NCBI GenBank assembly: GCA_035390125.1
Contig: DAOOTD010000003.1
Coordinates: forward strand, 20,122 to 84,121
DNA from: Candidatus Moraniibacteriota bacterium
GTDB lineage: Bacteria; Patescibacteriota; Minisyncoccia; Moranbacterales; GWC2-37-73
Direction of reading: 5' to 3'
Length of the DNA: 64,000 nucleotides
A program made the position numbers and the translations under genes. The notes beneath the pieces are model-generated. The model ran no database searches and was not told the origin of the DNA. It saw nothing but the letters and a program-made list of their open reading frames with translations. Shown here piece after piece: positions 7,660 to 44,754 of the stretch (its first letter is position 1; each line of letters starts with the position of its first letter).

Positions 7660-9570
7660 TTACTTGATGACCTTACCGGCATACCCTACCTTGGGATCTT
7701 CTGAAAGCTGAGTATTTTTTTTCTCTTTTTTTATGTTTATATTTTGTCCTGTAAAACTATCGGTTGCGCTTAAAACAGATTCATTGAGAAGTGTAATGAA
7801 CTGACCAAATTGGTTTAGCTGTGGAGTTATTTCAACTTGAAATGCAACTTCTCGTTTAGGCTTTAAAACTCCCGTCGCCGCATTTATATCACCAGCATCC
7901 CAAATAACCTCGTTAGTTCTTTCATTGTATGAAATTTTCTCACCTTCTGGATATACTTTTCCGGTCCAGCGTACTCCCGATGGCAATGATGATATTATTT
8001 TTGTATTAGAAATATCATTGGAAATATTATCAACCAACCAATGCAAAGAGAAAGTAGTTGGTGATCCCACCTTGATAGGCATAGGACCCGTATTTGAAAT
8101 CTTTGAATCATTATAAAATCCTTGGACATTAAAAAGTACTTTTGATGAAAGTTTCAGCTTTAAAACATCACTGCCTATGATCTTATTCGCATTATTGGTC
8201 ACTGGAATATCTGGGCTATCTATTTTTGCAACAGAAGAAACTATAAAGTTTTTGTCAGATTCTTTTTCTACAGGAATCATTATTTTTACAGGGATTGAAA
8301 AGCCAACTGATCCTGATGCCTGAGGACTAATATTTTTTAGCTCTGGAATTTCTGATGCTTTCCAGGTTATTAACCCTGTTTGTTCGGAATAAGATCCTCT
8401 GTCTACTTTTATTTTTGAAAAATCAAGAATATTTCCCTTAATTTGAGCGGTTATAATAGCATCACGAAGACCCACAGAACCAGTATTTACATACTGGATT
8501 ACATAAGAAAGTTTTTCTCCAGCATAAATAAAGTTTGAATCTTTTTTATATAAAGATTGATTTATTGTAAGAATAGGAGAAATTATGTTAGTTTTATATT
8601 CTTGTTTATCAAAAATTGAAAAATTTCCATCCTCTCCAATGTGCCCGAGTGAGACAGAAATAGTTTCTTGATCTCCACTTTTGCCTTCAAGCTGACCATG
8701 AATTATTATTTTTCCGCTTTGCCCTGCTTCTAGGCTCAGTATATACCAATATGCATTTTTTTCAGATGGGTTTGGTTGCGCATCATTAAATTCAAATCCC
8801 TGAGGAAAATCAACCCTGATTTGTAAATCACTTATATTTTTTATATCATTGTTTTTATACTCAATCACATACTCAACTTCATTTCCACTAACTATTTCTT
8901 GCGGAGCCATTATATTAATTGAAATTGGTGAACCAGCTATTCTTACGCTAATTTCACTTTCCGTTGAAAGACTTTCTGAAGAATTAGCTGGAGTAAAAAT
9001 AAGAGATGCATGCATATTAGCAGGAAAATCTTTGGGGGCATAAAAATTTCCCTTGAAATCAACCGTTCCTTCATTTTTTGGTTCTATAGTGCCTATATTT
9101 ATCAGACTTGAACCAAGGCTTAGGTATTTAACATTTACATTGTCAGATGATGGCTGAAAATTTTCAGTATAAGTTAATTTAATCTCAACATTTTTCAAGG
9201 CAATACGATTATCATTTTTATAATGTATTGTGTACTTAGTGGGTGCAGTGCTATCAACTTCCCTAGGTCCGTCAATATACACCGAAACCCGATCTTGATT
9301 AAATGCACTTTTTTTCCACCAATTATAAGTAAAATATCCAGCTAAAGAAATAATAAACAATAAAATGACTGATGAAATTATCAATATCATTTTTTTTTGT
9401 TCAGGCGAAAGGCCTTTTTTGGGCCTGCTCCAGTTTTGTTGTTCGTCAAAAGGACTAGGTTGTTCGGGAAGAGATTTGTTGGGATTATATTCGTTCCTTT
9501 CCTGGATGCGCTCAGGAACTACATTTGAATCATATTTATACAGTTCTTTATTGAGATCATTTAGAGACAT
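7660..9570 (-). CDS. Membrane-anchored protein with a large extracytoplasmic beta-rich domain (DUF11/CARDB-like 'conserved repeat domain' segments)
   Basis: ~60-aa cytoplasmic N-terminus, one TM helix (MILIISSVILLFIISLAGYFTYNWW), then a 550-aa domain with repeated L.Y.I.Y.N.G...A.I.A motifs (GEKLSYVIQYVNTGSVGLRDAIITAQI). Confidence 0.55.
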   Translation of the reverse strand: MSLNDLNKELYKYDSNVVPERIQERNEYNPNKSLPEQPSPFDEQQNWSRPKKGLSPEQKKMILIISSVILLFIISLAGYFTYNWWKKSAFNQDRVSVYIDGPREVDSTAPTKYTIHYKNDNRIALKNVEIKLTYTENFQPSSDNVNVKYLSLGSSLINIGTIEPKNEGTVDFKGNFYAPKDFPANMHASLIFTPANSSESLSTESEISVRIAGSPISINIMAPQEIVSGNEVEYVIEYKNNDIKNISDLQIRVDFPQGFEFNDAQPNPSEKNAYWYILSLEAGQSGKIIIHGQLEGKSGDQETISVSLGHIGEDGNFSIFDKQEYKTNIISPILTINQSLYKKDSNFIYAGEKLSYVIQYVNTGSVGLRDAIITAQIKGNILDFSKIKVDRGSYSEQTGLITWKASEIPELKNISPQASGSVGFSIPVKIMIPVEKESDKNFIVSSVAKIDSPDIPVTNNANKIIGSDVLKLKLSSKVLFNVQGFYNDSKISNTGPMPIKVGSPTTFSLHWLVDNISNDISNTKIISSLPSGVRWTGKVYPEGEKISYNERTNEVIWDAGDINAATGVLKPKREVAFQVEITPQLNQFGQFITLLNESVLSATDSFTGQNINIKKEKKNTQLSEDPKVGYAGKVIK

Positions 9571-18357: not shown

Positions 18358-19503
18358 TTATTCTTCCGTCCAAATACCTGGGCCTACTGGGCCGGAACAT
18401 TTCTTGGTTCCATAGGCGTTAGAAATACATCCATTATCGCAAGTTTTGCCTTTGCAGGTGTTTTTTTCACAACCATTTGAGACACAGCAGGCACCGTCAG
18501 TTTTGACGCCATCCATAAGCTTGCAGCCATTATTGCATTGCTTGCCTTGGCAGGTTCTTTGCTCGCAGTTATCTGCCTGACAGCAGCTCTGGTTGGTATA
18601 GGAACCATTTAAGCTTCCATCCGTGCATTGTCTAGTTTCTTTGACACACTCTGATCCATAAGGTGCATAGCTGTCTTTATAGGCGTCGACTGAACTGCCG
18701 CTAGCTACAGTTGTGCCCCAAGGCGTGGTGCAGGGACAAGGTGCTACGCTGCAGTTTTGGTTGGTGGCTGTTCCGCTCAAGACTCCATTGGTGCAGGTTC
18801 TATTTTGTTTGACACTATCACAGGATGATCCGCAGGCTACTGAACTTGAGGAGTAGGCATCAACTGATTGACCATTATCTATTGTTCCCCCCCAAGGCAG
18901 AGTACAAGTAGGATAAACAGTAGGACCAGTTGAGCTACCACTGAAATTAATCCACCCTAACTCATCTGACCAAGCATACCCACTCAGTTTTCCATCTGAT
19001 GCAACTAATACTCCATATTTAGACCCGTTTTGGGCTGTACCATTTAGTTTTATCCAACCTAGCCATCCTCCTGAATTACCAACTTTATAGGCATCTGCAA
19101 TGCTCACTATCCTTGCCCAGCCTTGCAAAGTGTTATCAGCAACACGTTTTGACACACAATTACCATCAGGACAGCCACTGAGATATCCGCCAGAATTATC
19201 AAAGGCAATATACCCCAAATTTTCGCTCCAGGCATATCCGCTCAAATCACCTCCAGAAGAAGAAGTTGGTATATTTAAGCCATAAGAAACACTACCTCCT
19301 GCCCCTGAATTTATATTATTAGCGCTAATCCAGCCAACACCCGTCTTATTCCCAGCTCCGTCATCGCTTCCTCCCCAAAGCCAACCTGATCCGTTTTCTG
19401 ATGTTCCGGCATTTACTTTTAAAATGCTTGCTACAGCAAAAATCATGCAAAAAACAATTGCTGCTATTCCATATTTGATTAAAAATTTTTTTTGTTTTGA
19501 CAT
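18358..19503 (-). CDS. Secreted repeat protein with ~20-aa aromatic (cell-wall-binding-like) repeats and a Cys-rich C-terminal half
   Basis: Signal peptide MSKQKKFLIKYGIAAIVFCMIFAVASILKVNA. Repeats LSGYAWSENLGYIAFDN / GGWLGWIKLNG / LSGYAWSDELGWINFSG. Two ~45-aa Cys modules (C.LPWGGTI..G.SVDAY......CGS.C.SV.Q.RTCTNG.L.G..TNQ.C) are followed by CQADNCEQRTCQGKQCNNGC... Confidence 0.7.
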   Translation of the reverse strand: MSKQKKFLIKYGIAAIVFCMIFAVASILKVNAGTSENGSGWLWGGSDDGAGNKTGVGWISANNINSGAGGSVSYGLNIPTSSSGGDLSGYAWSENLGYIAFDNSGGYLSGCPDGNCVSKRVADNTLQGWARIVSIADAYKVGNSGGWLGWIKLNGTAQNGSKYGVLVASDGKLSGYAWSDELGWINFSGSSTGPTVYPTCTLPWGGTIDNGQSVDAYSSSSVACGSSCDSVKQNRTCTNGVLSGTATNQNCSVAPCPCTTPWGTTVASGSSVDAYKDSYAPYGSECVKETRQCTDGSLNGSYTNQSCCQADNCEQRTCQGKQCNNGCKLMDGVKTDGACCVSNGCEKNTCKGKTCDNGCISNAYGTKKCSGPVGPGIWTEE

Positions 19504-19584
19504 AAGTTAAAATTAATAAATATTTTAAAAATTAATTTTTAATAAAAAGTATAATCCGGAATATTTAATTTAATTTTTTATTAT

Positions 19585-20532
19585 TTAATAACATCCTCTT
19601 TCAGTAATAGTTGCTGTGCAAGTTGAAGTATCATATGCCGAACATGTATAATCAAACCAATAATTTATGTATCTATAATTATCGACTTTGCATGTTTCCG
19701 CAGAAGCATTACTGAATACATGACTACCAGTAGTGCAAGAAACGGCTGGACATTTTGAAACATTATTAGTTGTTCCATTACAAGTTTTTACAGTAGTAGT
19801 TGAATAATTTTTATATGATGACCATCCACTTGGACAACTGCTTTGAGAAAATTTACAAAAATTCTTATCTCCATCACTCACCAAGATTCCACCTGCACTA
19901 GTACAATCATCAGTAGAATGATATGTTCCATAAAGAAATATTCTCCCTGAATTGTTTGTGCAACGAATATAAGCTGTCACGTCTGTACAACCTATATTCA
20001 TACATTGCCATCCATTTTCTCCAATGGGCCTGCCCCCATAACCAGAAGAGTCACTATCATCGCATACATCTCTTCCCCAGCAACCGCCACCTACCATCGT
20101 ATCACCGCTAAAGCAATATATAGGATCAGTGGTTTTAACTTCTCTAGTATAGAGAGGTCCTATGGTAGTACCCGCGTTTCCACTGATACTCATTTCGCTC
20201 AACCACTTACCAGTACTTCTCAAATAAACATCGTTAACGTCTATGTTTCCGCTAGCGCCTTTATCTGGATTTGGGGTTTGTGTCCCAACTCCCACATTAC
20301 CATGAACAAAAAGACTGTTTAAAACATCTAAAAATGCTCCGCTAACACCCAAGCTTCCTGCCTTGTTTTGGAGAATATCACTTGTATTTATTGGGGCGCC
20401 AACATTGCCATCTGGAGCTGTTGCAGTCGGTTCAGTCCAAGCTTTGGCAAATTGAATGACACAACCAAGAGTTATTCCGATTATAGCTACGCTTACCCAA
20501 TATGAGATACCCTTCGTTGTTTTTAATTTCAT
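19585..20532 (-). CDS. Secreted Gly/Cys-rich protein, paralog of the next gene at its N-terminus
   Basis: Signal peptide ...VIQFAKA|WTEPTATAPDGNVGAPINT is near-identical to the N-terminus of the 20555-22255 product. The C-terminal 180 aa is Cys-rich (about 24 Cys). Confidence 0.7.
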   Translation of the reverse strand: MKLKTTKGISYWVSVAIIGITLGCVIQFAKAWTEPTATAPDGNVGAPINTSDILQNKAGSLGVSGAFLDVLNSLFVHGNVGVGTQTPNPDKGASGNIDVNDVYLRSTGKWLSEMSISGNAGTTIGPLYTREVKTTDPIYCFSGDTMVGGGCWGRDVCDDSDSSGYGGRPIGENGWQCMNIGCTDVTAYIRCTNNSGRIFLYGTYHSTDDCTSAGGILVSDGDKNFCKFSQSSCPSGWSSYKNYSTTTVKTCNGTTNNVSKCPAVSCTTGSHVFSNASAETCKVDNYRYINYWFDYTCSAYDTSTCTATITERGCY

Positions 20533-20554
20533 AATTTATATTTTATTCAAAAAA

Positions 20555-22255
20555 TTACTGTAAAAGTTCTGAATGCCATGTATTATTACTATTTACATAT
20601 TGATAACTACTACAACCTGCTGGTGCTGATGTTTGACAAACTCCGTCTCCTGAAGTCAGATAGAAGTTAGGTATAGCCGTACTTGCTATAACACCATTAA
20701 CGCACTTTACAGCAAATGTTATAGCTCCTTCGACACTACCCTCATTATCCCCAAAACAAGTACATCTCCAACCACTCCAAGCACATGACCCGCCTGCGGA
20801 CTGCCATGAAGCTAATCCACTAGCGTCAGAAGTCAACACCTTACCTGCACCTTGGGTTCCGTCAGTGATTTTAACCTTGCCACTAATGTCCAGTTTAGCA
20901 GTAGGACTGGTTGTACCGATACCGACATTGCCGGCAAAATAACTCTTAGGTCCAGCTCCGTAAAAATCATGACCAGTAGATGTTCCTTTTCCATAAATAC
21001 CTATAATTCCAGTACCAACAACACCATAGTTGCCTCCGTTAGCAACGACGGCATATCCTCCACCAGTAGCATAAACTCCATAATCACTACCCCAAGCATT
21101 AACACCAGTAACACCTTCTCCGCGGATACCGGTTGGTCCATAACCATAAATACCATAAGTACTGCCATTTCCGTATACACCGTATATACCGCCTTGACCA
21201 ACAACGCCAACAGCATCAGAACCAACGTTTCCGTAACCATAAACACCCCTAGAACCCTCGCCTCTAACACCGAGTCCATAAGAAGCACTGTTTTTCCCAT
21301 AGACACCAGCTCCGTTTTGATTGCCAGCAGTGCTATAACCTTCAACGCCATAAGTTCCTGTACCATATATGGCAGCATTACTATCTCCACCGCTTCCCAC
21401 GGAAAGTTTAGATAAAGGACTAGTTGTGCCAACTCCAACATTGCCATTATTATAATAAATCGATGTTCCATTTGTTACCCATTGACTTGAACCGCCACCA
21501 GCTGCTGGCGTTTGCCACGAAGCTAAACCATTGGCATCGGAAGTCAACACCTTGCCTGCACCCTGGGTTCCGTCAGTAATTTTAACCTTGCCGCTAATAT
21601 CCAGTTTAGCAGTAGGACTGGTTGTGCCAACTCCAACATTGCCGGCGCTATTCAATGTCATGTAAGGCGAAGTGTAGGATGGGCCAATATAATAATAATT
21701 TAAGGAATCAGCTGCACCAAAGACCCCAAAACCTCCTCTATTTGTGTTTGAGCTGCCTCTAAAAAAATAACCCATATTCCATCCACCAGTATCACCTTTT
21801 ATACTAATACTTCCAACATTATTGCCAGTAGGACTAAATATTATAGGCCTAGGTCCATTAACCGTTACAATACCATTATTTCCTAAAATCAAGGGTGAAA
21901 TTCCAGTTGTTCTGTCAAAAAAAGAAATATTCCCATCATCCCCTCCGCTAGGATATATTTCCCATTGATGTCCTCCGCTGTAATAGGTCGTATCGGTATT
22001 TCTGAAAACTACGCGGTTTGAACCGCCATAATTACCATCTACAAGCACCGTTCCCTTAACTTGCAATGCACCTGTTACGCCTAAAGATCCATTTTTAACT
22101 TGAGGAGCCGTACCAGTATTTATTGGCGCGCCAACATTACCATTTGGCGCTGTTGCAGTCGGTTCAGTCCAAGCTCTGGCAAACTGAACGGTACAGCCAA
22201 CAATTGTCGCAATTATAGCTATACTTGCCCAGTATGTAATATTTTTTGTTTTCAT
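20555..22255 (-). CDS. Secreted Gly-rich fibre-like protein with phage-tail-fibre-type repeats (NVGIGTTSPTAKLDISGKVKITDGTQGAGKVLTSD..GLASWQ) and a Gly-Tyr-rich central region
   Basis: Signal peptide ...VQFARA|WTEPTATAPNGNVGAPINTG. The 46-aa tail-fibre-like module occurs twice almost identically. A GVYGYGNVG...GIYGYG Gly/Tyr tract lies between the copies. The short C-terminus contains Cys residues. Confidence 0.7.
   Translation of the reverse strand: MKTKNITYWASIAIIATIVGCTVQFARAWTEPTATAPNGNVGAPINTGTAPQVKNGSLGVTGALQVKGTVLVDGNYGGSNRVVFRNTDTTYYSGGHQWEIYPSGGDDGNISFFDRTTGISPLILGNNGIVTVNGPRPIIFSPTGNNVGSISIKGDTGGWNMGYFFRGSSNTNRGGFGVFGAADSLNYYYIGPSYTSPYMTLNSAGNVGVGTTSPTAKLDISGKVKITDGTQGAGKVLTSDANGLASWQTPAAGGGSSQWVTNGTSIYYNNGNVGVGTTSPLSKLSVGSGGDSNAAIYGTGTYGVEGYSTAGNQNGAGVYGKNSASYGLGVRGEGSRGVYGYGNVGSDAVGVVGQGGIYGVYGNGSTYGIYGYGPTGIRGEGVTGVNAWGSDYGVYATGGGYAVVANGGNYGVVGTGIIGIYGKGTSTGHDFYGAGPKSYFAGNVGIGTTSPTAKLDISGKVKITDGTQGAGKVLTSDASGLASWQSAGGSCAWSGWRCTCFGDNEGSVEGAITFAVKCVNGVIASTAIPNFYLTSGDGVCQTSAPAGCSSYQYVNSNNTWHSELLQ
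20800..20940. repeat. Intragenic direct repeat, copy A (~140 bp, ~90% identical to 21510-21650)
   Basis: ...gtcaacaccttacctgcaccttgggttccgtcagtgattttaaccttgccactaatgtccagtttagcagtaggactggttgtaccgataccgacattgccggc... recurs at 21510-21650 with a few substitutions. Confidence 0.8.
21510..21650. repeat. Intragenic direct repeat, copy B
   Basis: See copy A. It encodes the second NVGIGTTSPTAKLDISGKVKITDGTQGAGKVLTSD module. Confidence 0.8.
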
Positions 22256-22285
22256 TTATTTATTTTTTATTTAATTATTATTGTT

Positions 22286-22936
22286 TTATTTTATGGTATT
22301 AGCAATAGATGTTACATCCACATTGGCATCGGTTACTATACTAGGAATTTCTTGTGCATCTATCTGAATAGCTATAAATTCTTTTTTATTCTTTATGTTT
22401 TCATTAGCCATAACTGTGATATTTTGATTTTCCTTAAGCTCTGATAATTTTATCTCTTTATTTTCAAAAGGACTTGGAGACAATGGTATATTTTCTATTT
22501 GAGAAGGATCGTTTTTAACCTGTAGCTGTTTCATTTTTTCATCAAAAGCATCCATTTCCTTCTTAAATTGAGCTGGATCTTTTTCAAAAACTAAATTTAT
22601 TTTGGTGTTTGAATCAACTGTAACTGTCCTAATGTCTGCTTTTGAATCTGATAAATAATTGGCTGAACTAATTTTAAATGTCAATTTATTGCCGTCTATT
22701 TTTTGAATTGTACCACTGACAATTTTTGTTTCTTTATCAGACAGCAAGTTTGATGGCTGATTAATGGCATTGCCATTGATCCTATTTACTCCATAATTAG
22801 CAGAAGAGAGACACGATGTTTGACTGGAAATTTTTAATCCAACCATAATTCCTAATGAAAAAATTATCACAATTATCAAAACTCCAATTATTCCAATCAA
22901 AATTTTATTTGAAATGTTTTCGTATTTATTTGACAT
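22286..22936 (-). CDS. Membrane-anchored hypothetical protein (N-terminal TM, extracytoplasmic domain)
   Basis: ILIGIIGVLIIVIIFSLGIMVGL TM helix, then a 170-aa polar domain with no recognisable motifs. Confidence 0.55.
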   Translation of the reverse strand: MSNKYENISNKILIGIIGVLIIVIIFSLGIMVGLKISSQTSCLSSANYGVNRINGNAINQPSNLLSDKETKIVSGTIQKIDGNKLTFKISSANYLSDSKADIRTVTVDSNTKINLVFEKDPAQFKKEMDAFDEKMKQLQVKNDPSQIENIPLSPSPFENKEIKLSELKENQNITVMANENIKNKKEFIAIQIDAQEIPSIVTDANVDVTSIANTIK

Positions 22937-23040
22937 TTTTTTATATTTAAATTATTTATTTTTTAATTACTTTAATAAATATTCAAGTTATTCTGTTTTT
23001 GGCAATTTTTTACATTTTTTATAAAAATTGTCTTAAAAGA

Positions 23041-23367
23041 TTATAATTCTTTTAATTTTTCATTAATTTCCTCTTCTGTTTGGACATCTTGCTTTATGTC
23101 TGATTTCTCGCGGATATTATCCAATTCTTTTATTTGTTTTTCCACTTCTTCCTGTGTTGGAGCAGAAACTCCCTGTTGCTTTCTCAACTCATCCATTTCC
23201 TGAAGTTGCTGCTGGGTTTTTAAATCAATCGCTGAAGTTTGGTTTTCATTTTGAACTTGCGAATTTGTTTCTTTTTCACTATATGCATTTAAAAGAATTA
23301 CACCTACAATAATAAGGGTTATGACTGCTATACCAATTAGTATAGCCATTTGTTGTTTTTTGTTCAT
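23041..23367 (-). CDS. Small membrane-anchored coiled-coil protein, hypothetical
   Basis: MNKKQQMAILIGIAVITLIIVGVILL TM helix followed by a Q/E-rich helical tail; 108 aa. Confidence 0.5.
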   Translation of the reverse strand: MNKKQQMAILIGIAVITLIIVGVILLNAYSEKETNSQVQNENQTSAIDLKTQQQLQEMDELRKQQGVSAPTQEEVEKQIKELDNIREKSDIKQDVQTEEEINEKLKEL

Positions 23368-24703: not shown

Positions 24704-27499
24704 TTAAAGATATTTTGCCGTCCAGCTTTTCTTATCTTTTTTGAGCTTGTCAGGAGTACCTTCAAATGTAATATACCCCCCAGATTCTCCACCATCAGGA
24801 CCGAGTTCAATAACCCAATCTGCGTCTTTTATCACATCCAGGTTGTGTTCAACCACAATAACTGTATTCCCTTTATCCACTAATGCATTCAAAACTGATA
24901 ATAACTTCTTTATGTCTTCAAAATGAAGCCCGGCAGTAGGTTCATCTAAAATATACAAGGTGTTGCCAGTTGATTTACGTGCTAATTCTGTAGCTAACTT
25001 TATGCGTTGCGCTTCCCCGCCAGAAAGGTTAGTGGCGCTTTGGCCAAGTTTCAAATATCCCAAGCCCACATCTTCCATTGTTTTTAATTTTTCTGAAATT
25101 AAGGGATTGCGAGTAAAAAATTTGAGAGCTAATCTTACATCCATGTCTAAAATCTGCGCAATATTAAATCCTTTGTATTCTATCTCTAGTGTTTTTTTAC
25201 TAAATCTTGTGCCATCGCAAGCTTCACATTTTACATATACATCAGGAAGCAGATGCATTTCGATTTTTTTAAGTCCTTCCCCTTGGCAAACTTCGCAGCG
25301 TCCACCTTTCATATTAAAGCTGAATCGGCTAGCAGTGTACCCTCTATTTTTTGCTTCCTCCGTTTCAGCAAACAAATCACGTATATGTGAAAACACTCCT
25401 GTATATGTAGCCGCATTTGAACGCGGAGTTCTTCCGATAGGAGCTTGATTTATACTGATAACTTTTTTAATATTCTCAAAGCCTTTTATTTTTTTATGTT
25501 TGCCAGGAAGTTCCTTAGTTCCGTAAAAATGGCGGGAAAGAGCTTTGGATAGAATATCTTTCACCAGAGTAGACTTTCCACTACCTGAAACTCCGCAAAT
25601 TGAAACTAATTTCTGAAGTGGGATCTTTATGTCTATTTTTTTAAGATTATGCTCCTCTGCATCTAGAATTTCTATAAATTTTCCACTGCCATTCCGGTAT
25701 TTATTTTTATTGGAAACTTTTTTCTTTTTAGATAGGTACTGAGCTGTAATATTATTAGAATTCAAAAGTTTTTTATAATTACCTTCAAAAACAACGACTC
25801 CGCCTTCTTCTCCTGCTCCAGGTCCCATATCAATAATCCAGTCTGCTGATTTTATTATGCTTTCATCGTGTTCTACAACAATAATTGAATTTCCCACACT
25901 TTGAAGTTTTTTCATGGTATCTATAAGTTTTTCAGTATCACGATTATGAAGTCCTATAGATGGTTCATCTAAAACATACACTATGCCCATCAACTGAGAA
26001 TTGAGTTGTGCTGCTAGTCTTATGCGTTGCGCTTCTCCGCCGGAAATAGTTTGAGCGCTTCTTCCAAGATTCAAGTATTCCAATCCTACATTTTTGAGTG
26101 ATGCGAGCCTACCAATAATTTCACGTATTATAGAACGACTTATCTCTTTTTCTTGGCTGTTTTGATCCCATTTTTCCCAGTTTTTAAAAAATTCATCCAA
26201 ACAATCAATACTCATCAAAACTAAATCATTAATATTTTTTCCTTGAACTTCAACAGCCAAAAATTCTCTTTTCAGTCTTTTGCCACCACAGGCTTCACAT
26301 ACATGTTCGGTCATATATTTTTCAATTTCAGCACGTACATAATCAGATTTTGTTTCAAAATATTTATTTTCAAGCATCGGTATAACTCCACTGAATTCTT
26401 CATCTCCGTAAAGAACTACTCTCAGTTGCTGTTCTGAGAGTTTTTTAACAGGAACATTCATTGAAAATTTATATTTCTTCGAAACATCTTTCAATATCAT
26501 CAGCTGGGAATTCTGTCCGCTAATTTTTCCGCCTGATTTACTCCATGGTTGTATCGCACCTTCCATAAGAGAAAGGTTTTTATTAGGAATAACCAATTCC
26601 TCATTAACTTTTAATATATAACCTAAACCACTGCACACACTGCATGCTCCTTCTGGACTATTGAAAGAAAAGTGTCTGGGGGTTATTTCTTTTATTTTAA
26701 TTCCACAATTGCTGCAGAAAAAATCCTGGTTATAATTGCTTTCTTTAGAATTATCAAAAAGTACTTTCATTGAATTCCCCCCTATTTTCATAGCTGTTTC
26801 TATTGAATCAGCTATTCTTTCAATATCTGGATTCTTTTTATCCAAAACAATCCTGTCGATGACCACTTCTATTTCTGCGTTGTTATATTCATCAATCGAC
26901 ATTAGAGCTTCAGCAACAGGAATAATTTTCTCTTTTATTCTAATTCTTGCATATCCCATTTGCTGAATATGTTTTAAGGCATCTCTGCTGTTCATGCTAT
27001 CTTTTGGTTTCGACAGAATAGCAATTTGGGTATTATGAGAAAATGACAAAATTTCATCTAAAATTTCTTTATTAGAACGTTTTTGCATAGATGTTCCACA
27101 TTGCGGACAATGAGGTATTCCGACTTTGGCAAATAAAATTCTTAGATAATCATAGATTTCTGTAAGAGTTCCGACTGTTGAGCGAGGTGAACGAGAAATG
27201 CTTTTTTGGTCAATAGATATTGGCGGACTCAAATTCTCAATTTTATCTACATCTGGCTTTATTGATGGATCAAGAAAATTCCTGGCATATGAAGAGAGGC
27301 TTTCCATATAACGACGATTGCCTTCGGCGTAGATCGTATCAAAAGCTAAAGAGGACTTTCCTGATCCAGAAAGTCCAGTAATTACAACAAATTTGTCACG
27401 CGGGATATCAACATCTATATTTTTAAGATTATTTACGCGTGCACCCTTGATAATGATGTCGCCTGTATTCTTTCTCGTAGAAGATTTTTTTGAAGACAT
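24704..27499 (-). CDS. uvrA: Excinuclease ABC subunit A (copy 1)
   Basis: [35 protein letters not shown], zinc-finger CPQCG..., a second Walker [12 protein letters not shown], and ABC signatures LSGGEAQR (twice); 931 aa. Confidence 0.95.
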
Positions 27500-29474: not shown

Positions 29475-32369
29475 TTATTTTTTCTTCAGCACGTCCTTCA
29501 GATATTTTGCCGTATAGCTTTCTTTATGGTATTTGGCAATTTCTTCCGGCGGACCTGTAACAACAATTCGCCCGCCATTGTCGCCTCCTTCCGGACCCAT
29601 ATCAATGATCCAATCGGCTGTTTTGATGACATCCATATTATGTTCGATTACGACAACGCTGTTTCCCGCATCAACCAAGCGGTTCAAAACATTAAGTAAT
29701 TTTTTTATGTCCTCAAAATGCAACCCGGTTGTCGGCTCATCTAAAATATACAAAGTATCTCCGGTCGCGCGCCGCGAAAGTTCCGCCGCCAGTTTTATCC
29801 TTTGCGCTTCCCCGCCAGAAAGAGTGGTCGCGCTCTGTCCTAGTTCAATATAGCCCAATCCCACTTCCTCCAACACTGCAAGTGGATCGTGTATTTTAGG
29901 GAAAGCTTCAAAAAATTTAACGCCTTCAGAAACTGTCATTTTCAAAACTTCAGCAATATTTTTCCCTTTATATTTAACTTGCAAAGTTTCCCTATTATAT
30001 CTTTTCCCATTGCAAACATCGCAGGGCAAATAGACATCTGGCATAAACTGCATTTCTATTTTCAAAAATCCTTCACCGTTGCAATTATCACATCGCCCGC
30101 CGTGAATGTTGAACGAAAATCTTCCCGGACCATAACCGCGCATTTTGGCATCTTTCGTCTGAGCAAACAGTTCGCGTATCGGCGTAAAAAGTCCCGTATA
30201 TGTCGCCGGATTGGAACGCGGAGTTCTTCCAATTGGCGACTGATCGATCATAATCACTTTGTCTATATTTTCAATGCCAATTATTTCTTTGTGCCTGCCC
30301 GGCGCATCCAATGAGCGGTGCAATTTATTGGCCAATGCCCTATATAATGTTTCTTCAACCAAGGTTGATTTTCCGGATCCTGAAACTCCGGTCACGCAAG
30401 TAAAAACTTTCAGTGGAAATTCCGCCACAATATTTTTTAAATTATGTTCTCCGGCTCCGCGAACTACAATTCTTTTTTTCTTATTTGCATCTCTTCGAAA
30501 TTTTGGAATTTCTATTTCCAGTTCTCCCCGCAAATATTTTCCGGTCAAAGACTTTAGATTATTAATAACTTCCTCAGGCGTTCCTTCGGCCACAATTTCC
30601 CCGCCATGTTTTCCGGCTCCTGGTCCGATATCCACCAGCCAATCAGCCGAGCGCATCATTTCCTCATCGTGTTCAATGACAATCAAAGTATTTCCTATTT
30701 TTTGAAGTTGACGGAGCGTTTCGATGAGTTTCGCGTTATCGCGCGCGTGGAGACCAATTGATGGTTCATCCAAAATATACAAAACCCCGACCAATTGCGA
30801 ACCTATTTGCGAAGCCAGACGAATTCTTTGTGATTCTCCTCCTGACAATGAATAGGCAGCCCGATGCAATGTCAGATAATCCAATCCGACATTATTGAGA
30901 AAAACCAACCGTGCAATAATTTCCTTTAGAATTCTGCCGGCAATCAATTCTTCGCGATGCGTTAATTTTAAATTCTGAAAAAAATTCAAACATTCGCGGA
31001 TACTCATGATTGATGCTTCATATATGTTTTTGTTTCCTACTGTAACAAATAAAACTTCTTTCTTATATCTGGCGCCTTTACAGGTTGAGCATGGTTTCTG
31101 CGACATATATTTTTCAATCCCTTCGCGAACTGCATCGGATTCGGTTTTAAAATAACGATCCTGCAGGAAACCAACTATTCCCCGCCACTGCATATAGAAC
31201 TTCCAGTTAGTGCCGGTTTTGGCGCGAATTGTTATTGGGATTTCTTCCGCTTTTTCCTCAGAAACCATGCTTTCATGATCAGCTGTTCCATAAAGAAGCA
31301 GATCTAGCTTTCTTTTAGGCATGTCGCGCAATCTGGCATTGTCAGGAATATTGAAATATCTGACTACTGACAAAATAACGCCGCCGTAGTAATTATTTTT
31401 TTTGAAATTCCAGGGTGCCAAACCGCCTTCAGCGATTGTCTTATTTGTGTCAGGCATGACTCTTTCAATATCTATCTCTTTTTTAAACCCCAGCCCCTCG
31501 CAAGCTGGACAGGCACCATATGGAGAATTGAACGAGAACAGCCTCGGCTCCATTTCAGGAAATTCTACATCGTGCAAAGGACAAGATAACTTTTGATTAA
31601 AAACAACTTCGTTTTTTGCTTGTTTGCTGTTTTTTGTTTCCTGATTACTGATTTTTACCAATCCTTCGGACATTTTCAGTGCTTTTTCAACACCCTCAAA
31701 TATTCGGCTTAAATTTTCAGCCTTTACTTCGATTCTGTCGACAATAAGATCGATGTTATGTTTCTTGTATCGTTCCAGTTTTATCTCTTTGAAATTTTCC
31801 AGTTTATATAATTTTCCATTAACAATAGCTTCAGAAAAACCTCGTTTCCACATGTCATCAAGCAAGGTTAAATATTCACCTTTTCTTTCGCGCACAATTG
31901 GAGAAATAATTTCGATTAAGCGTGTTTCATTTTTATCGCCCATTTCCAAGATACGATCAACAATTTCATCGGTTGAAATTTTTGAAATTTCCTGTCCGCA
32001 AACAGGGCAATGCGGAATTCCGATTTTAGCATAAAGAAGACGCAGATAGTCATGGATTTCTGTCACCGTTCCGACTGTGGAACGCGGATTATGCGAAGCA
32101 GACTTTTGATCAATTGAAATAGCCGGCGACAGACCTTCAATATAGTCCACGTCCGGTTTATCCATTTGGCCCAAAAACTGGCGAGCATAACTGGAAAGGC
32201 TTTCCAGATATCTCCTCTGCCCCTCGGCAAAAATGGTATCAAAAGCCAGCGTAGATTTTCCTGAACCGGAAATTCCCGTAAATACAATGAATTTATTGCG
32301 TGGGAGCTCTAGATCAATGTTTTTCAAATTATGTTCGCGCGCACCTTTTATTATAATTTTGTCTTCCAT
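29475..32369 (-). CDS. uvrA: Excinuclease ABC subunit A paralog (copy 2), full length
   Basis: [40 protein letters not shown] zinc finger, second Walker [17 protein letters not shown] signatures twice; 964 aa. Its 3' half (29475 to ~30700) reaches 55-65% GC. Confidence 0.9.
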
Positions 32370-34527: not shown

Positions 34528-36504
34528 TTAGGCTCTTTTTCTTCTCATCCGCAACCAATTTACTATAAGAATAAATATTACAACACCCAAGAAAGCGTAC
34601 CACCAAAATTGTCCTGATGATTTTGGTTTTTCTTCTGTTTCGCTAGAAACAGTATTTTTGGACTCAGTTCCCAAAACTTCACCTACATCTTCATTTTTAT
34701 TATTTATTTCTGCCGCCAAAACTTGTTTTGTGTTACTGTTCAGGCTATTTGCATTTTCTCCGATAACAATGTCTTCGGACAATATTTCAGTGCCTTCATC
34801 GTTTATAATAATATCTGACCCCGTTTCTGTTGGAATTTCTATAGAGATAACCTTTGCATCACTATTGTTCCCGACTTCATCCAGACTAACAAATTTATAA
34901 TAATATTTCTCTCCTCTCTTCACGTTTTGATCAGTATAGTTTTCATCATTTTTTTCATTTTTAGCAATCCGCGAGTTATTATCAATTTTAAAATCCTTGC
35001 TCTTCCCTTTGTATATATAAACCATATCTATATCAGAGTCATCAGCATTCCAACTAAGATTTACAAAAACATTTTCACTATCATATTTTGCATCCAAATC
35101 ACTGATTTCATTAGGATCTTCTGCATCCACTTTGATTTCTTTTTCACCTATAAAGCTGTAATTTGAAGCTTTGTCTATACTTCTGTAATAAAGTTTCCAT
35201 GTTCCGTTATCTATAGTAATTGGATCAGTATAATTTAGCCATGTTCCTGAGTTACTATTTAATTGATATTCTATTCCTTCTACATCATAATTATCGCTTG
35301 CAGTCAGAGTTATTTTTGGTTTGCTTTTATACCACCCATTATTACCATCGTTTTCTGCAGGATAAATTGACGCAAATACTTCGGGCTTAGTCATATCATA
35401 AACTATATTAATAGAATAGGAGTTTGATGTGCTGTAATCATTATAAACAGCCTTAGAATAAACCCCATAAATTCCTTCAGGAATTGTTACTGGAATTTTA
35501 TAATTCCAAGCTCCTTTTCCATTAGCATGAACTGCTGTTTCGCCTTCCTGCCAATTTGTCCCATTCCAATAGTTAATTTCTTCTGAACCGAAAGATTTGT
35601 GCGATATTTTTAGTTCAATATATTTAACGCCAGAAGCCTTCTCTATCGCAATGCCAGAAATTGACCCATCCCAAACATTAGTAGCTATTAAGCCTTTATC
35701 ACCAAGATTAAAGGTCGTTATATAATTGCCAATCAAACCTAAACTCATCTTAAATGTATGGCTATGGTCTTCTAACATGGTGTTGCCTGCATTGTCTTTG
35801 GCTTTAGAAACATATATTGAATTGATTCCGTTCTTCAGGTTATCATAAGGACAATCAAAACAAAAAGTTCTGGCATCACTATCGCCACAATTGTCTACAT
35901 CCTGAGTATGTGAAAGCAAAAAAACAGAAGACCTGACAGACACTTCTGGAATATTGTCTATACCTTCATTAAAAGTAATTTTTATGGTCGGTATAGTTGA
36001 ACCCAAATAGGAAAACTGATCATAAGTTTTGCCATCTGAACTGATATTTTTTATTGAAGGCCTAACGGTATCCACATTAAATGTGTGTGTATTATCTTCA
36101 GCCATTTTATTTTCTATATCATCCTGGGCTTCAGAAATATATATAACCTTCTTTTCTTGAGTTGAAGAGGGTACATTATATTTAAAACAAAAAGTCTTGC
36201 TATCACCATCATCACAATCATTAACATTTTGTGCGAATATGGGACTGTAAATGTAAGCCGGAGATGGTATTGGAGATATTGGAAGAAAAAGAGAAGGTGA
36301 TGATATTACTGATATTCTCGGTTTATTAATTATATCTTCATCAAAATCAACTCTGACAACTGGGTCATCTGAATCCAAATTATAAGTTTCACCATCTGAA
36401 CTGACGTTTACAACTGAAGGCCCAGATACAGCTTCGGCTGCTTTAAAAAAAATGAAAATTCCAAAAACAATAACCACAAATAAGATTGCTTTTTTATTTT
36501 TCAT
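34528..36504 (-). CDS. Cell-surface protein with signal peptide, Ig-like/beta-sandwich domains, a C-terminal CHB_HEX_C-like + FN3-like module, and a C-terminal TM anchor with basic tail
   Basis: Signal peptide MKNKKAILFVVIVFGIFIFFKAAEA|V. Residues ~370-560 align with the C-terminal module of the 2211-aa protein (WY.SKP..TL.A.D....IEYQ..S.SGTW..Y..P..ID.G...YYR..D.A.N.S.IGEK.IKVD..DP.E..DL.A.Y...ADDSDI..VYIY.G...DFK). The C-terminus is KPKSSGQFWWYAFLGVVIFILIVNWLRMRRKRA. Confidence 0.7.
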   Translation of the reverse strand: MKNKKAILFVVIVFGIFIFFKAAEAVSGPSVVNVSSDGETYNLDSDDPVVRVDFDEDIINKPRISVISSPSLFLPISPIPSPAYIYSPIFAQNVNDCDDGDSKTFCFKYNVPSSTQEKKVIYISEAQDDIENKMAEDNTHTFNVDTVRPSIKNISSDGKTYDQFSYLGSTIPTIKITFNEGIDNIPEVSVRSSVFLLSHTQDVDNCGDSDARTFCFDCPYDNLKNGINSIYVSKAKDNAGNTMLEDHSHTFKMSLGLIGNYITTFNLGDKGLIATNVWDGSISGIAIEKASGVKYIELKISHKSFGSEEINYWNGTNWQEGETAVHANGKGAWNYKIPVTIPEGIYGVYSKAVYNDYSTSNSYSINIVYDMTKPEVFASIYPAENDGNNGWYKSKPKITLTASDNYDVEGIEYQLNSNSGTWLNYTDPITIDNGTWKLYYRSIDKASNYSFIGEKEIKVDAEDPNEISDLDAKYDSENVFVNLSWNADDSDIDMVYIYKGKSKDFKIDNNSRIAKNEKNDENYTDQNVKRGEKYYYKFVSLDEVGNNSDAKVISIEIPTETGSDIIINDEGTEILSEDIVIGENANSLNSNTKQVLAAEINNKNEDVGEVLGTESKNTVSSETEEKPKSSGQFWWYAFLGVVIFILIVNWLRMRRKRA

Positions 36505-36692: not shown

Positions 36693-39600
36693 TTATTCAT
36701 CCTTTCTTTTTAATATCAGCCACAAAACTCCTCCAACTAATACGGCTACTCCTAGCGTAAACCATAGATACCACCAGTTTTGCGATGAAGATGCGGGTTT
36801 TGTTTCTGCAATACTTTTCTTTTTTTGCTGAGATTCTGATCCTAGAGGTTGACCACCTTGATCACTTCCGCTCGGCGTCGTGATTTCATTATTATCTCCA
36901 ATAGGTTCCCTCTCGACTACCGCATCAGCTGGCAATGCTTCTGTGCCTTCATAGACTACAGTGGCTTGCCCACCTGCTTTTGGAATTTCAATAGAAATCT
37001 TCTCTACTTCGCTTTTGTTGCCAGCATCATCCAGCGCAACGAGTTTATAATAATATTTTACCCCTCTTTCAATATCATAATCGGTAAAATCTTCGTCACT
37101 ATGGTCGTTTTTAGCAACACGCGAAGAGCTGTTAACTTTGAAATCGCTAGTCGTGCCTCGGTATATATAAACATCTTTTATATCCGAGTCATCAGCATCC
37201 CATTCTAATTTTACCCCATTGGTATCTTCCTTGTATGTCGCCTGCAAATCTTCAACTTCATCAGGATCATGCGTATCCACTTTTATATGCTTTTCCCCTA
37301 TTGGGCTAACATTACCCGCCAAGTCCAGTGCCCTATAGTAAAACATATATTCACCATCATCAATCTCTACAGGAGATGGATAGGTTGTCCATGTTCCTGA
37401 AGTTGAATCAATCTGATATTCTATCCTGTCTAAGTTCAAATCAACTGCACTCAATGTCACATCTGGTTTGGAAACATACCAGTGATTGTCTCCATCTGGA
37501 TGGCTAGGATCAATTTCAAGAGTAACTACTGGAGGAGTTGTGTCCCAAATAAGAGTGAACTCATCATAAGCTGAATTACCCACATTGTCAGTCACTGTAA
37601 GTCTAGCCACATATGTTCCGTCAGTATCAGCAGATATGTCAGTATCTTCAGCATTTGGAGATACAAAAGTTATAGTTCCGGGACCTGAAGTTTGTGTCCA
37701 AGAGTAAGTTGCTATTCCACTGCCATCATCAGAAGCTGTGGCATCTTGAGTAAATAAGGCGTTAACAACTTTGTCCGTCCCGGCATCTACGCTTGGAGGA
37801 TTTCCATCCACTATCCTGGTTATGTGATTCATTCCTCCACCACCCCAATGTTCTACGCTGTCGCGTCCGCGCATCGCAAAATCATATGATACACCATCAC
37901 TTAGAAGTCCGCTGAGGTCTGCGATGCAGTTTGATCCATCCCAAGTAGCACTAGACCAACTTGCTGGCCATGCATCTCCAGTTACTCTAAATCTGTATTC
38001 ACAAGCAACGATTGGTGAAACTGAATCTGAAATTGTTCCAGTAAGTGTTGGATTTGCGTTGGTATATGTGCCATCATCCGGACTTATTGTTATTGAATCA
38101 GTAGTTGGATTTGCAGAATCGACTGTGTAAGTTGCTGGTGTTCCTGTTCCTTGATTGCCAACCATGTCATTGACTCTTACGTTTACCGTGTATACTGTTC
38201 CATCCGCAATAGTTGGACTGATGTCTGCTATGCAACGTCCAGTTCCTGAATTGTAAGATCCAGAATACCAATTGGCTCCATCATCCAGGGTGTATTCACA
38301 AGTGGTGATGTCCAATCCGGAAGCTGCATCTGAAACGTCGGCAATAATACGAAATGTGTCATCACCTCTTACATATGGAGTATAGTTTGTCCATGGAGAA
38401 GTTCTTACTATTCGAACATTGCTTACTATTGGTGCAGCTGCATCCACTGTTCTAGTTATATTATTTTCCCCGCCTCCGCCATTATGACCTAATGTGTCCG
38501 TTGCGCGGGTTGAAAAATCATACGAAACTCCGTCAGAAAGACCACTAATACTTCCTGTGCATGTTCCAGTTCTTGGATCGCCTGACGGTGTCCATGTTCC
38601 ACTCATCCAAGTTGTCCATCCTCCGCTTCCGGAACCAGTCACCCTGTATCTGTATTCACAACTGGTGATTGGTGAAACTGTATCACTAAGCGTACCGGTT
38701 ATTGTCGGATCAGCACTGGTATAAATACCATCAGGATCAGGACTAATCGCTATTGAGTCAGTATGTGGTCCTTCGGAATCAACTGTATATACAACAGCGC
38801 TTCCTTCTCCTATATTGCCAACAAGATCAGAGACTCTAATGTTTATTGTAAAAACATCGCCATCCGTAAGGGTTGCTGGGATACTAGCTATGCAACGTCC
38901 AGTTCCGACATTGTAAGATCCGGCATACCAGTTAGCTCCGTTATCCAGTGTGTATTCGCAAGTGGTAGTATCTAATCCTGAAGCTGCATCTGAAACGTCG
39001 GCACGGATACGGGTTGTTACGTTTCCATTGATATATGGATAGAAATCGGTTCCACTGCTTTGAACCACAGCTTGAACATTGGTTACGCTTGGCGCAACTG
39101 TATCTTTAGTGAAAGTCCTGGAATCAGTGCCTATATTTCCAGCTGCATCAGTATCACGAACATTCAAAGTAAAGCTTGTTTCGCCAAGTCCGGCAAAATC
39201 TGAAAGCATAGAAAATGTATCACCAGATGCGCATGATTCCCATGCTCCACCATCTATATTACATTCTTGGGTACCAGGTTCTGAACTTGAGAATGTAAAA
39301 ACTGATGTTCCACTGGCATAAGCTGAAACAGCAGGAGTTAAAATTGTTACGGTAGAAGGCACTACGTCTTTAGCGGCTGTATCAAGTCTAGGAGTAGCTG
39401 TGTTTCCAGCTACATCTGAAACTGAACATACAACACCTATTGCTCCATCATTCAAACCTAATAAGGAACCTGAAGAGATGGTTGCAGTATTGCCAGATAT
39501 TAGCCCTGACACAGGAATATATGTAAAAGTATCGCTTATTAAACATGCAACTGATTGGCCGTCTTCTACGCCGGTTGTAACTACGTCTATATCAACTCCC

Positions 39601-43686: not shown

Positions 43687-44754
43687 TTAGTTGCAGCTTC
43701 CTCCTTGAGTTGCAGTCTGATCTGAAGTTGAGGCTCCCTTGACGGCTGCCAGTTTTTTGGAACATTCTGCTGGAGCAACATTGAAAGAATTGCATATTTC
43801 CTGCTTATATGACTCTGGGTCTCCGTACTTATAAATTGCTTTTGAACTAACCCCATTGATTTTCATTGTTGGTGATCCGGTAGCATTGGCTCCTTTTGAT
43901 GCTTCTTCGTTTGACTTCATCAATCCCAAACCTTCTGCAGCAACACAAGAAGATATTTTAGAAGAATTTAAACTCAGTGTTTTGGCTCCTGCTTCCCAAC
44001 AGGACCCATCACTTCCGCATTTAGCATTAACATAGGATACGAAACTAAACCATTTGTCTTTTCCGTAATCCTTGAGGACGCAAGCTTCCCTTTCATTTTG
44101 GACTACTTCTTTTTCGCCATGCAACGATTCAACGGTGTCGCCGTTTACAGATACAATGTAGTGGAAATTGAAATCAACTTTATTTTTAAGCAAATCATAA
44201 ACCGGTTTCAGGGTGTCTTCTGCTTTGTTGCCGTAAGGGCAAAAACTCATAACAAATAAATCTACTACTGGCTTGTCTGCTTTAGGAATTGGCTTATTAT
44301 TTTCTTCCGACTGCTTCTTGGCTAATTCGTTTTGTTTTGCTATTTCATCAAGTGAAATCAGAGAACCGCTGACAAGTTTATTGCCGTCTTTGGTTAAATA
44401 AACTGGTTGTTCTTGGCCATTAACATTTACCATCAACTTATATAAACCGTTTTCTTTGGTCACTTCTTTAATTTCTACTTTTACTCCAGTAGCCGTATTG
44501 GCATTTAAAAATGTCTGGAATTTTTCCTTGATCATTTTTGGACCTATATCAACTTTTTCCCGATAATTCTTAAACGCAAAAACTCCTGCGATAATAATAA
44601 ACAAAACTATGGCTACAATAATTAATGTTTTGTTATTCTGCCATATTGTACAGATTTTTCCTTTGCAATTGCATTTTACCCCGCATTTGCATTTTTCTTC
44701 ATTTGACATTTGAGCAGAAGAATTTTGTTCCTCTATTTTCTTTTCATCTTCCAT
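43687..44754 (-). CDS. Membrane-anchored thioredoxin-fold (DsbA-like) protein with an N-terminal cytoplasmic Cys-rich (CKCGVKCNCKGKIC) motif
   Basis: N-terminal Cys cluster, TM helix LIIVAIVLFIIIAGVFAF, then a thioredoxin-like domain with FVMSFCPYGNKAED (active-site-like CPYG) and further Cys; 355 aa. Confidence 0.55.
   Translation of the reverse strand: MEDEKKIEEQNSSAQMSNEEKCKCGVKCNCKGKICTIWQNNKTLIIVAIVLFIIIAGVFAFKNYREKVDIGPKMIKEKFQTFLNANTATGVKVEIKEVTKENGLYKLMVNVNGQEQPVYLTKDGNKLVSGSLISLDEIAKQNELAKKQSEENNKPIPKADKPVVDLFVMSFCPYGNKAEDTLKPVYDLLKNKVDFNFHYIVSVNGDTVESLHGEKEVVQNEREACVLKDYGKDKWFSFVSYVNAKCGSDGSCWEAGAKTLSLNSSKISSCVAAEGLGLMKSNEEASKGANATGSPTMKINGVSSKAIYKYGDPESYKQEICNSFNVAPAECSKKLAAVKGASTSDQTATQGGSCN

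Follow-up and report, generated by a model that had tools for sequence, protein, structure and literature searches.

A five-gene cassette of Patescibacteria with putative cell-surface fibre proteins related to the mosaic adhesive trimers of Bdellovibrio

In mosaic adhesive trimer (MAT) proteins, a signal peptide and a conserved N-terminal domain precede a beta-helical shaft that is trimeric and has capping loops (Caulton et al. 2024, PMC10769870). Their tips vary, being an S74 chaperone/protease in some and an adhesive domain of the non-S74 kind in others, and paralogues combine common shafts with swapped tips (PMC10769870). The fibres are displayed on the surface of the predator, and one of them binds prey glycans (PMC10769870). 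No member of the Patescibacteria appears among the MATs of other organisms listed in the supplement (PMC10769870). Little is known of how bacteria of this phylum locate a host and stay attached to it; so far, nothing has been implicated beyond type IV pili and unnamed 'predicted adhesins' (PMC11665869, PMC12206443). Here, we describe a gene cluster in a stretch of 64,000 nt of contig DAOOTD010000003.1 from Candidatus Moraniibacteriota bacterium (from here: the window). The closest described system is the MAT fibres of Bdellovibrio bacteriovorus, in particular their non-S74 subgroup, e.g. Bd2133 and Bd1334 (PMC10769870; PDB 8ond, 8oml, 8ojn, 8on4, 8ol4).

The cluster comprises three co-oriented genes on the minus strand, here termed A, B and C. 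Gene C (20555..22255) encodes a long fibre protein of 566 aa, composed of a signal peptide, an N-terminal module of Patescibacteria (candidate phyla radiation, CPR), a shaft resembling those of MATs and tail fibres, and a small tip with 6 Cys. Gene B (19585..20532, 315 aa) is a short fibre paralogue; its signal peptide and N-terminal module are of the C type and are followed by a single degenerate stalk unit and a 16-Cys head. The product of gene A (18358..19503, 381 aa) is a secreted protein with a beta-barrel and Cys modules and the cassette partner of the fibres. We propose, with a probability of roughly 60%, that a five-gene cassette including these genes, conserved across Patescibacteria, builds cell-surface adhesin fibres that recognise other (host) cells. 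The original prediction, made from the letters of the window alone, had described three secreted proteins found nowhere else in the window and interpreted them as an adhesin or fibre system. The three minus-strand open reading frames (ORFs) are present as described, and hidden Markov models (HMMs) of the leader and of the A domain, run on all ORFs of the window, detected such proteins only at this cluster. The fibre interpretation agrees with the homology of the C shaft to characterised surface fibres of Bdellovibrio and with the common base and swapped tips of B and C.

The relationship to MATs rests on the shaft of C. A phmmer search with C alone against PDB sequences matched Bd2133 (8ond) at E 1e-6, and a profile of C plus 40 homologues matched the same protein at E 2e-19. 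This profile also found 8oml, 8ojn, 8on4 and 8ol4, which are Bdellovibrio entries named 'cell wall surface anchor family' (E 7e-9 to 1e-5), as well as MyRF (E 2.5e-5). Shaft repeat 1 (21500..21649, minus strand; aa 203-252, SAGNVGVGTTSPTAKLDISGKVKITDGTQGAGKVLTSDANGLASWQ...) aligns to the capping region of the Bd2133 beta-helix (AGNVGIGATAPTAKLEVAG), and shaft repeat 2 (20789..20938, minus strand; aa 440-489) contains the top-scoring stretch against Bd2133 (query 441-490). The two repeats are identical at 43 of 50 residues and their DNA (21513-21646 and 20802-20935) is 88% identical over 134 nt, so the duplicated module that had been predicted for C exists, with copies of about 50 aa. A third, partial motif, NVGVGTTSP, begins at aa 272, giving three NVG[VI]GTTSP..KL motifs altogether. 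The Gly/Tyr-rich tract anticipated for this protein was located between 20936 and 21388 on the minus strand (approximately aa 290-440) and consists of repeats of the G-x-Y-G type; similar tracts occur in other members of the family according to blastp.

We found at least 2,858 homologues of C, many of them possessing a Peptidase_S74 domain (PF13884) and annotated as 'tail fiber domain-containing'. No PF13884/S74 domain was detected in B or C, and C had no match in Pfam (E ≤ 1) or NCBIfam. The tip of C (20558..20800, minus strand; aa 486-566, 81 aa, 6 Cys) matched a single sequence among all fetched proteins and ORFs, its 99%-identical orthologue P0001. Since it lacks an S74 domain, has a tip matching only that of its orthologue and shows the shaft matches described above, C very probably is a short, non-S74, MAT-like fibre. 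Judged by the profile matches, C shares the ancestry of its shaft with Bdellovibrio MAT fibres and S74-type phage fibres, in which the shaft is trimeric and beta-helical, and the fibres of the cassette are presumed to trimerise as well.

Proteins B and C start with the same type of leader. In C, the signal peptide (22172..22255, minus strand; aa 1-28, MKTKNITYWASIAIIATIVGCTVQFARA), with a predicted cleavage site before W29, is followed by a mature N-terminal module (22082..22171, minus strand; aa 29-58, WTEPTATAPNGNVGAPINTGTAPQVKNGSL) that hardly varies at the residues W, T, E, P, P, N, A, P, N, Q, K and G. The corresponding segments of B (20350..20532, minus strand) cover aa 1-31 and aa 32-61. 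At an offset of 3, 41 of 62 residues of the two N-termini are identical and the mature 20-mer AWTEPTATAP(D/N)GNVGAPINT differs at one residue, in agreement with the common signal peptide and mature N-terminus of the original prediction; outside the leader, the two proteins have nothing in common. The 5' DNA of both genes had been called near-identical, but the actual identity is 79% over 146 nt (20384-20529 versus 22116-22261). The consensus of the module reads W-T-E-P-x4-P-x2-N-V-x-A-P-I-N-x5-Q-x-K-x-G and is placed after a hydrophobic signal segment ending in small-x-Ala. In the family alignment, the near-invariant residues are A31, W32, T33, E34, P35, P40, N43, A46, P47, N49, Q55, K57 and G59 (B numbering); N-terminal peptides of the fibre proteins are given by WTEPTATAPNGNVGAPINT.

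This module defines a very large family. A search with the leader profile against 1.84 billion cluster representatives (clusters at 50% identity) returned 7,593 proteins at E ≤ 1e-3 (1,975 of them at E ≤ 1e-10), with the match located at the protein N-terminus in all of the best 150 of the 7,593. When related genomes were searched for the leader, as had been suggested, a degenerate DNA pattern of the module occurred in 103 stretches among 185,579 GTDB species genomes, nearly all belonging to Moran-, Falkow-, Nealson-, Kuenen-, Nomura- or Wildermuthbacteria or to Paceibacterota/Parcubacteria. Neither this pattern nor the leader of B matched any of 2.9 million viral contigs. Among the shaft homologues of C, the module was found only in Patescibacteria-type sequences, and in the Bacteroidota relatives the NVGIGT shaft directly follows the signal peptide, with no module in between. 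There is no Pfam or NCBIfam model for it. On these profile and pattern searches, the module is distinct and almost confined to Patescibacteria.

Leader genes were also observed in metagenome-assembled genomes (MAGs) labelled Gammaproteobacteria, Bdellovibrionales or Omnitrophota (L017 1-5162, minus strand; L007; L039; L053; L071). These labels are unconfirmed and may be placeholders or reflect mis-binning; one of the leader genes encodes a 1,720-aa protein on a contig of 53% GC, and L071 shows a typical CPR cassette synteny.

A set of 182 leader proteins had a median length of approximately 235 aa and a median of 8 mature Cys, and one or more shaft motifs were present in 68 of them. At many loci, leader paralogues in tandem carry tips unrelated to each other; the tips are hypervariable across the family, and the hydrophobic leader segment is unusually conserved in one subfamily. 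Very different domains can be grafted onto the one N-terminal module, as in a 727-aa leader protein with DUF2341 (L062). Two leader proteins, encoded at L107 3676-4752 (plus strand; 358 aa) and P0151, match Shufflon_N, the constant region of PilV (E 1.9e-6, just above the cut-off).

Signal peptides were judged by sequence features (n-region, hydrophobic stretch and the residues at -3 and -1) and by Cys parity. Each of A, B and C has a K-rich n-region, a hydrophobic stretch of about 20 aa, a small residue at -3 (A/V/T/I) and one at -1; throughout the B/C leader family, conservation exceeds 90% for Ala at -1 and for Trp at +1. The total numbers of Cys in A, B and C are 25, 17 and 7, respectively, with one in each protein inside the signal segment, leaving 24, 16 and 6 in the mature parts. 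Of 171 leader proteins, 160 had an even mature Cys count and 11 an odd one (p 5e-35); among 111 A-family proteins, the mature count was even in 106 (p 1e-25). This even parity appears only if the leader is excluded. The even counts therefore point to extracytoplasmic disulfide bonding and to topological separation or cleavage at the predicted site. As indicated by their leader features, B and C are exported through Sec; they probably are cut by signal peptidase I just before the invariant Trp, which would bare the proline-rich module of about 30 aa. Elsewhere in the window (43687-44754, minus strand), a 355-aa Cys-rich membrane protein (13 Cys) matches PF03227, a GILT/DsbA-like thiol reductase domain, at E 2e-7 and above the curated cut-off; this protein could serve as an extracytoplasmic disulfide oxidoreductase for the Cys-rich cassette proteins.

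B differs from C in the parts beyond the leader. It has only one degenerate shaft unit, GNVGVGTQTP...GNIDVNDVYLRSTGKW, which is conserved within a subfamily, against the three motifs in C, and its head domain (19588..20160, minus strand; aa 125-315) contains 16 Cys, which probably form 8 disulfides. Approximately 24 Cys had been assigned to the last 180 aa of this 315-aa protein; we counted 16, and the number 24 fits mature A instead. Cys-dense ends, ascribed to all three proteins, exist in A and B, but the tip of C is modest in this respect, with 6 Cys in 81 aa. AlphaFold modelled aa 200-315 of the B monomer with a predicted local distance difference test score (pLDDT) of about 90. The head of 190 aa had no structural relative among the solved structures of the PDB or the predicted viral structures of BFVD. 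Most of the 64 homologues of B are alike only over the N-terminal ~27% of the protein. At one locus (L002), the stalk of a protein with a B-type head is longer and has an additional NVGIGT unit (P0123, 52% identity), and at another (L001) such a head follows straight after the leader, with no stalk (P0127). The occurrence of one type of head on differing stalks therefore is direct evidence of modular shuffling of stalks and tips.

The third protein, A, is not built like a fibre. Its beta-barrel domain (18928..19398, minus strand; approximately aa 36-192) contains four aromatic hairpins, GWLWGGS..GVGWIS, LSGYAWSENLGYIAF, LQGWARI..GGWLGWIKL and LSGYAWSDELGWINF, and the AlphaFold model shows a closed 8-stranded beta-barrel, with pLDDT values of ~89-97 over aa 71-190. 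Tandem Cys modules of about 50 aa follow (18580..18906, minus strand; aa 200-308) with the pattern C.(L/T)PWG...G.SVDAY...C...R.C(T)(N/D)G.L.G...NQ.C, occupying aa 200-252 and 258-308. The aromatic repeats of the LSGYAWS..LG[WY]I.F type (LSGYAWSENLGYIAF at aa 87 and LSGYAWSDELGWINF at aa 173) and the twice-repeated Cys module had both been noticed before; in addition, we found a pair of 32-aa CC modules (18394..18585, minus strand; aa 307-370) that share 12 of 32 residues with their Cys in register (pLDDT < 50). The likeness of the aromatic repeats to choline-binding or other cell-wall-binding repeats (CW_binding_1) did not hold, as Pfam gave no match at E ≤ 1 and the repeats are the hairpins of a closed barrel in the model, not an open solenoid. 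NCBIfam likewise had no match to A, and the profile of its family found nothing among PDB sequences. The 472 homologues of A are most alike over the N-terminal half, which has no Pfam annotation in any of them.

At the C-terminus, the A family shares the motif [LF]P.P.W-[KRIV]-E-[VIT]-x-P(-N), situated at the end of the protein or at most 3 residues from it in 113 of 158 members. In the window it is represented by a local variant of the family W-x-E-(V/T/I)-x-P motif, W-T-E-E (18361..18372, minus strand); further members of the family are P0188-P0304 and those of L062, L071, L065, L015, L031 and L077. Some lineages add a hydrophobic or amphipathic tail of about 17 aa after W-x-E-V-x-P. Known sorting signals (LPXTG, PEP-CTERM, GlyGly-CTERM and others) were rejected: A and six tailed relatives had no NCBIfam match, and most members end at the motif with no transmembrane segment. 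The motif has the look of a signal for docking or sorting and bears a superficial resemblance to the W-T-E-P start of the mature fibre proteins.

Gene context links A to the leader proteins. The leader and A-barrel HMMs were run over all ORFs of 105 loci, which encode 127 leader proteins. An A-domain gene was found in 37-40 of these loci, and it lay on the strand of the leader gene and within 2.5 kb in 40 of the 40 loci carrying A; the true co-occurrence is higher than counted because many of the loci are 8-kb fragments with the match near the edge. Conversely, we picked four A-family genes, located on contigs of 119-360 kb, solely for their homology to A, and each of them had a same-strand leader gene within 2.3 kb (4/4). 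By virtue of this linkage, conserved across Patescibacteria, A, B and C are a real functional unit.

Two further families recur next to leader genes. One consists of single-pass membrane proteins of ~160-260 aa (TM6/TM8 family), which adjoin leader genes in 8 of 10 loci for cluster 6 and in 8 of 8 for cluster 8, the two clusters being homologous according to hhalign (97.8%, E 1e-12). The other comprises small proteins of 65-135 aa with an N-terminal transmembrane (TM) helix, often followed by short tandem repeats; its cluster 3 was present in 16 loci and beside a leader gene in 14 of them. The gene directly upstream of the leader array encoded a small TM protein in 39 of 101 loci, a small TM or TM6/8 protein in 53, and one of these or A in 60. 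The window contains a representative of each outside the coordinates of A to C, a 216-aa single-pass membrane protein of the TM6/TM8 family (22286..22936, minus strand) and a protein of 108 aa in which tandem Q/E/L-rich repeats accompany an N-terminal TM helix (23041..23367, minus strand), for both of which Pfam returned only noise. Because such genes recur beside leader genes, we delimit the cassette in the window to five genes, 18358-23367 on the minus strand. The gene order within the cassette differs from locus to locus, and its neighbours are housekeeping genes: rsmI/uvrA/argS (window, L002, L107), clpP/tig/rny, or M50/rpsL.

According to our model, the N-terminal module common to B and C would hold the fibres at the cell surface, probably via the cassette partners, and the variable C-terminal tips would bind ligands on other cells, probably hosts. 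Duplication together with the swapping of tips or stalks would diversify binding specificity. A and the two small single-pass membrane proteins would be the best candidates for a base or anchor, or for a co-adhesin. By analogy with the MATs, the fibres would thus have a role in host adhesion.

Several points weigh against this model. Adhesion, trimerisation and anchoring are deduced from homology and gene context, and it is doubtful that A is the anchor. Being short and unlike the N-terminal domain of MATs, the CPR module may anchor the fibres in another way or may not anchor them. Short proteins predominate among those with the leader, and no clear shaft motif was detected in 114 of the 182; instead of forming fibres, many could be secreted globular proteins. 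For the B monomer, the pLDDT was only 50-65 over the leader and stalk, as is to be expected if an oligomeric stalk is modelled as a single chain. No lectin or other binding fold was recognised in the tip of B or C. Finally, we know of no cultured representative of the Moranbacteria, and their episymbiotic lifestyle is an assumption.

Other explanations have to be considered. The leader proteins could be soluble secreted effectors (Cys-rich toxins, lectins, bacteriocin-like or host-manipulating proteins), with the module acting as an export, processing or maturation signal. Such a function would suit the small, Cys-rich proteins that make up most of the family and show no shaft motif, the hypervariable tips, the unusually conserved hydrophobic segment in one subfamily, which hints at a dedicated pathway, and the absence of a recognisable anchor (LPXTG, lipobox) in Pfam and NCBIfam searches. 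We nevertheless consider it unlikely, as C and many relatives possess the long MAT-type shafts of structural fibres, the module sits in the mature part past the predicted cleavage site, and searches of Pfam, NCBIfam and PHROG revealed no toxin, peptidase or immunity domains; the linkage to membrane-anchored small proteins and to the A family also fits an assembled surface structure better. Such a structure might be purely a component of the envelope, i.e. cell wall or S-layer fibres or spacers, or phage decoys, that takes no part in cell recognition and whose tips vary under pressure from phages or predators. Tips without a recognisable binding fold, the phylum-wide spread and the position of the cassette amid housekeeping genes in conserved synteny would all be compatible with this. 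We judge it improbable as well, because the homologous MAT system is a family of adhesins with the same variable-tip logic (PMC10769870), and because multiple paralogues with unrelated tips per locus or genome are typical of recognition proteins, not of scaffolds.

The original prediction had also spoken of tail-fibre-like modules possibly derived from a phage. The deep relationship to the S74/tail-fibre superfamily stands, as seen from PHROG, MyRF and the MATs; a recent phage origin is not supported. That these are prophage or phage-derived tail fibre genes, cryptic or recently domesticated, could be read from the weak PHROG matches (tail fibre phrog_9942, E 7e-5; phrog_28668, E 7.6e-7), from the many 'tail fiber domain-containing' homologues with Peptidase_S74 and from the locally raised GC content, 0.43 versus ~0.33 in the AT-rich window. 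The last point is accounted for by Gly-rich coding. Moreover, tblastn with C and B found no match in 50,697 phage records, a BFVD fold search with B also found none, the leader pattern was absent from the viral contigs against 103 occurrences in cellular genomes, Sec signal peptides are present, the housekeeping neighbours are kept in synteny between genomes, and no phage structural or integrase genes lie near the cassette in the window. We consider this candidate very improbable, and among the explanations weighed here it is the least probable. The remaining alternative, type IV pilus tip adhesins (PilV- or minor-pilin-like), is very improbable in our view. It would account for the Shufflon_N matches of L107 and P0151, and type IV pili are the sole experimentally supported attachment organelles in the phylum (PMC11665869). 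Although pilD or pilT genes occur in about 6 loci, these belong to few lineages and pilT was close and co-oriented in 0 of 6; in the window there are no pilus genes near the cassette. B and C themselves are not type IV pilins or minor pilins, lacking a class III prepilin signal: the hydrophobic helix precedes the A-x-A|W site, there is no G-F-x-x-x-E, and Pfam gave no N_methyl match.

Our model can be extended to a phylum-wide surface apparatus of Patescibacteria, in which the W-T-E-P peptide of MAT-like trimeric fibres or mini-fibres would dock in a dedicated base formed by the A barrel and small membrane anchors, the W-x-E-V-x-P tail would be a related docking or sorting signal, and the interchangeable, disulfide-rich tips would be the main host-range determinants in CPR other than Saccharibacteria. 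The proposed dock, with a peptide in a barrel, would loosely resemble the Strep-tag in streptavidin. We offer this extension as a speculation with a small chance of being correct in full.

The genes of the window fit Candidatus Moranbacteria, and A is 100% identical to a MAG protein of that group at NCBI. C and B are separated by 22 bp, B and A by 81 bp, and argS starts 79 bp downstream of A. A scan for promoters and terminators barely exceeded the shuffled background; one weak terminator-like site lies just past A (18337-18323). A search for shufflon-like inverted repeats returned only AT-rich chance pairs. Compared with the window, the near-identical contig L106 differs in B (19667-19966; 95.9% identity, 6 gap positions); its assembly has a coverage of 1.9x, and indels are also present in its uvrA, so that we draw no conclusion on tip hypervariability from this difference. 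Scans of the 64-kb window detected no tRNA gene and no Rfam family at the gathering threshold. Almost all genes between 1 and 64000 are on the minus strand and the GC skew is steadily negative. Two uvrA paralogues of 931 aa (24704-27499) and 964 aa (29475-32369), both on the minus strand, are separated by 2 kb, and genes resembling uvrC and uvrB are close by. Further predicted surface proteins are a giant secreted protein of 2,211 aa with PKD-like and Big_13 Ig-like domains (36693-43328, minus strand), probably exposed at the surface and encoded where the GC content of the window peaks (0.44), and a likely surface or envelope protein of 636 aa with no Cys and with DUF11 and DUF7619 repeats (7660-9570, minus strand). 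A 658-aa secreted protein adjoining the giant protein (34528-36504) has no Pfam match.

Pfam and NCBIfam placed none of the three proteins in a characterised housekeeping family. That the cluster belongs to no described family, as had been thought, is true in part. What is known is the shaft, a member of the MAT/S74 superfamily. New with respect to Pfam, NCBIfam, the PDB sequences and the literature searched are the cassette, the tips of B and C, the N-terminal module, and the A family together with the motif at its C-terminus; in that literature we found no paper tying MAT-type fibres or this leader to Patescibacteria. Newly defined here are a very large unannotated family (7,593 clusters), its homology link to prey-binding Bdellovibrio fibres, a conserved cassette, and signatures by which it can be searched (the W-T-E-P module and W-x-E-V-x-P of the A family). 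The cassette provides candidate host-range determinants, which could be expressed, serve as probes that reveal the hosts of lineages not in culture, or be targeted in species amenable to experiment.

With regard to known systems, A shows a fold-level likeness to 8-stranded meander beta-barrels found in surface proteins and in binders of ligands, namely the barrel domains of TbpB, HpuA, NHBA and fHbp, avidins and OmpA-like barrels. It differs from these in having only 2-13% sequence identity and no profile match to any PDB sequence, and in its four aromatic G-[YW]-A-W-S...G-W-I-x-F hairpins, which are followed by disulfide modules and the W-x-E-V-x-P end. The PilV shufflon adhesins of IncI plasmid thin pili (Shufflon_N) likewise combine a constant N-terminal part with exchangeable C-terminal tips, and a few leader proteins match them; B and C, in contrast, do not match Shufflon_N and have neither a prepilin signal nor inverted repeats or a recombinase for DNA shuffling. 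Phage S74 fibres and tailspikes (K1F endosialidase, T5 pb1) and the eukaryotic MyRF belong to the same deep shaft superfamily as C, according to the MyRF match (E 2.5e-5), PHROG and the homologues with PF13884. Unlike the phage fibres, B and C have no S74 domain, carry Sec signal peptides, are not found in a phage context and do not match phage genome records.

The comparison with MATs is closer, in spite of clear differences. B and C possess a proline-rich module of ~30 aa typical of Patescibacteria in place of the ~130-aa beta-rich MAT domain, which probably is not shared (MATs are represented in the PDB as tip fragments only). They are shorter, with 315 and 566 aa versus ~1,000 aa, and their Cys-rich tips are unrelated to known MAT tips. 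Their genes lie within a cassette together with the A family and small membrane proteins, an arrangement that has not been reported for MATs, and the Moranbacteria are, unlike Bdellovibrio, presumed to be monoderm and hence to have no outer membrane. As in MATs, however, a signal peptide is joined to an N-terminus conserved within the family, and the shaft units of C carry a capping-loop motif, (N)VGIGTxxPxxKLxV, that parallels the MAT motif V-G-G/N-small-x-x-P-x-x-x-L (profile E 2e-19). The C-terminal tips of B and C are variable and of the non-S74 kind, and the paralogues combine one base with swapped tips. Like Bdellovibrio, the organism lives on other bacteria, a lifestyle that is assumed for Moranbacteria. 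The MAT/tail-fibre shaft would thus have been recruited in a second bacterial lineage living on other bacteria, where it is combined with a different base module.

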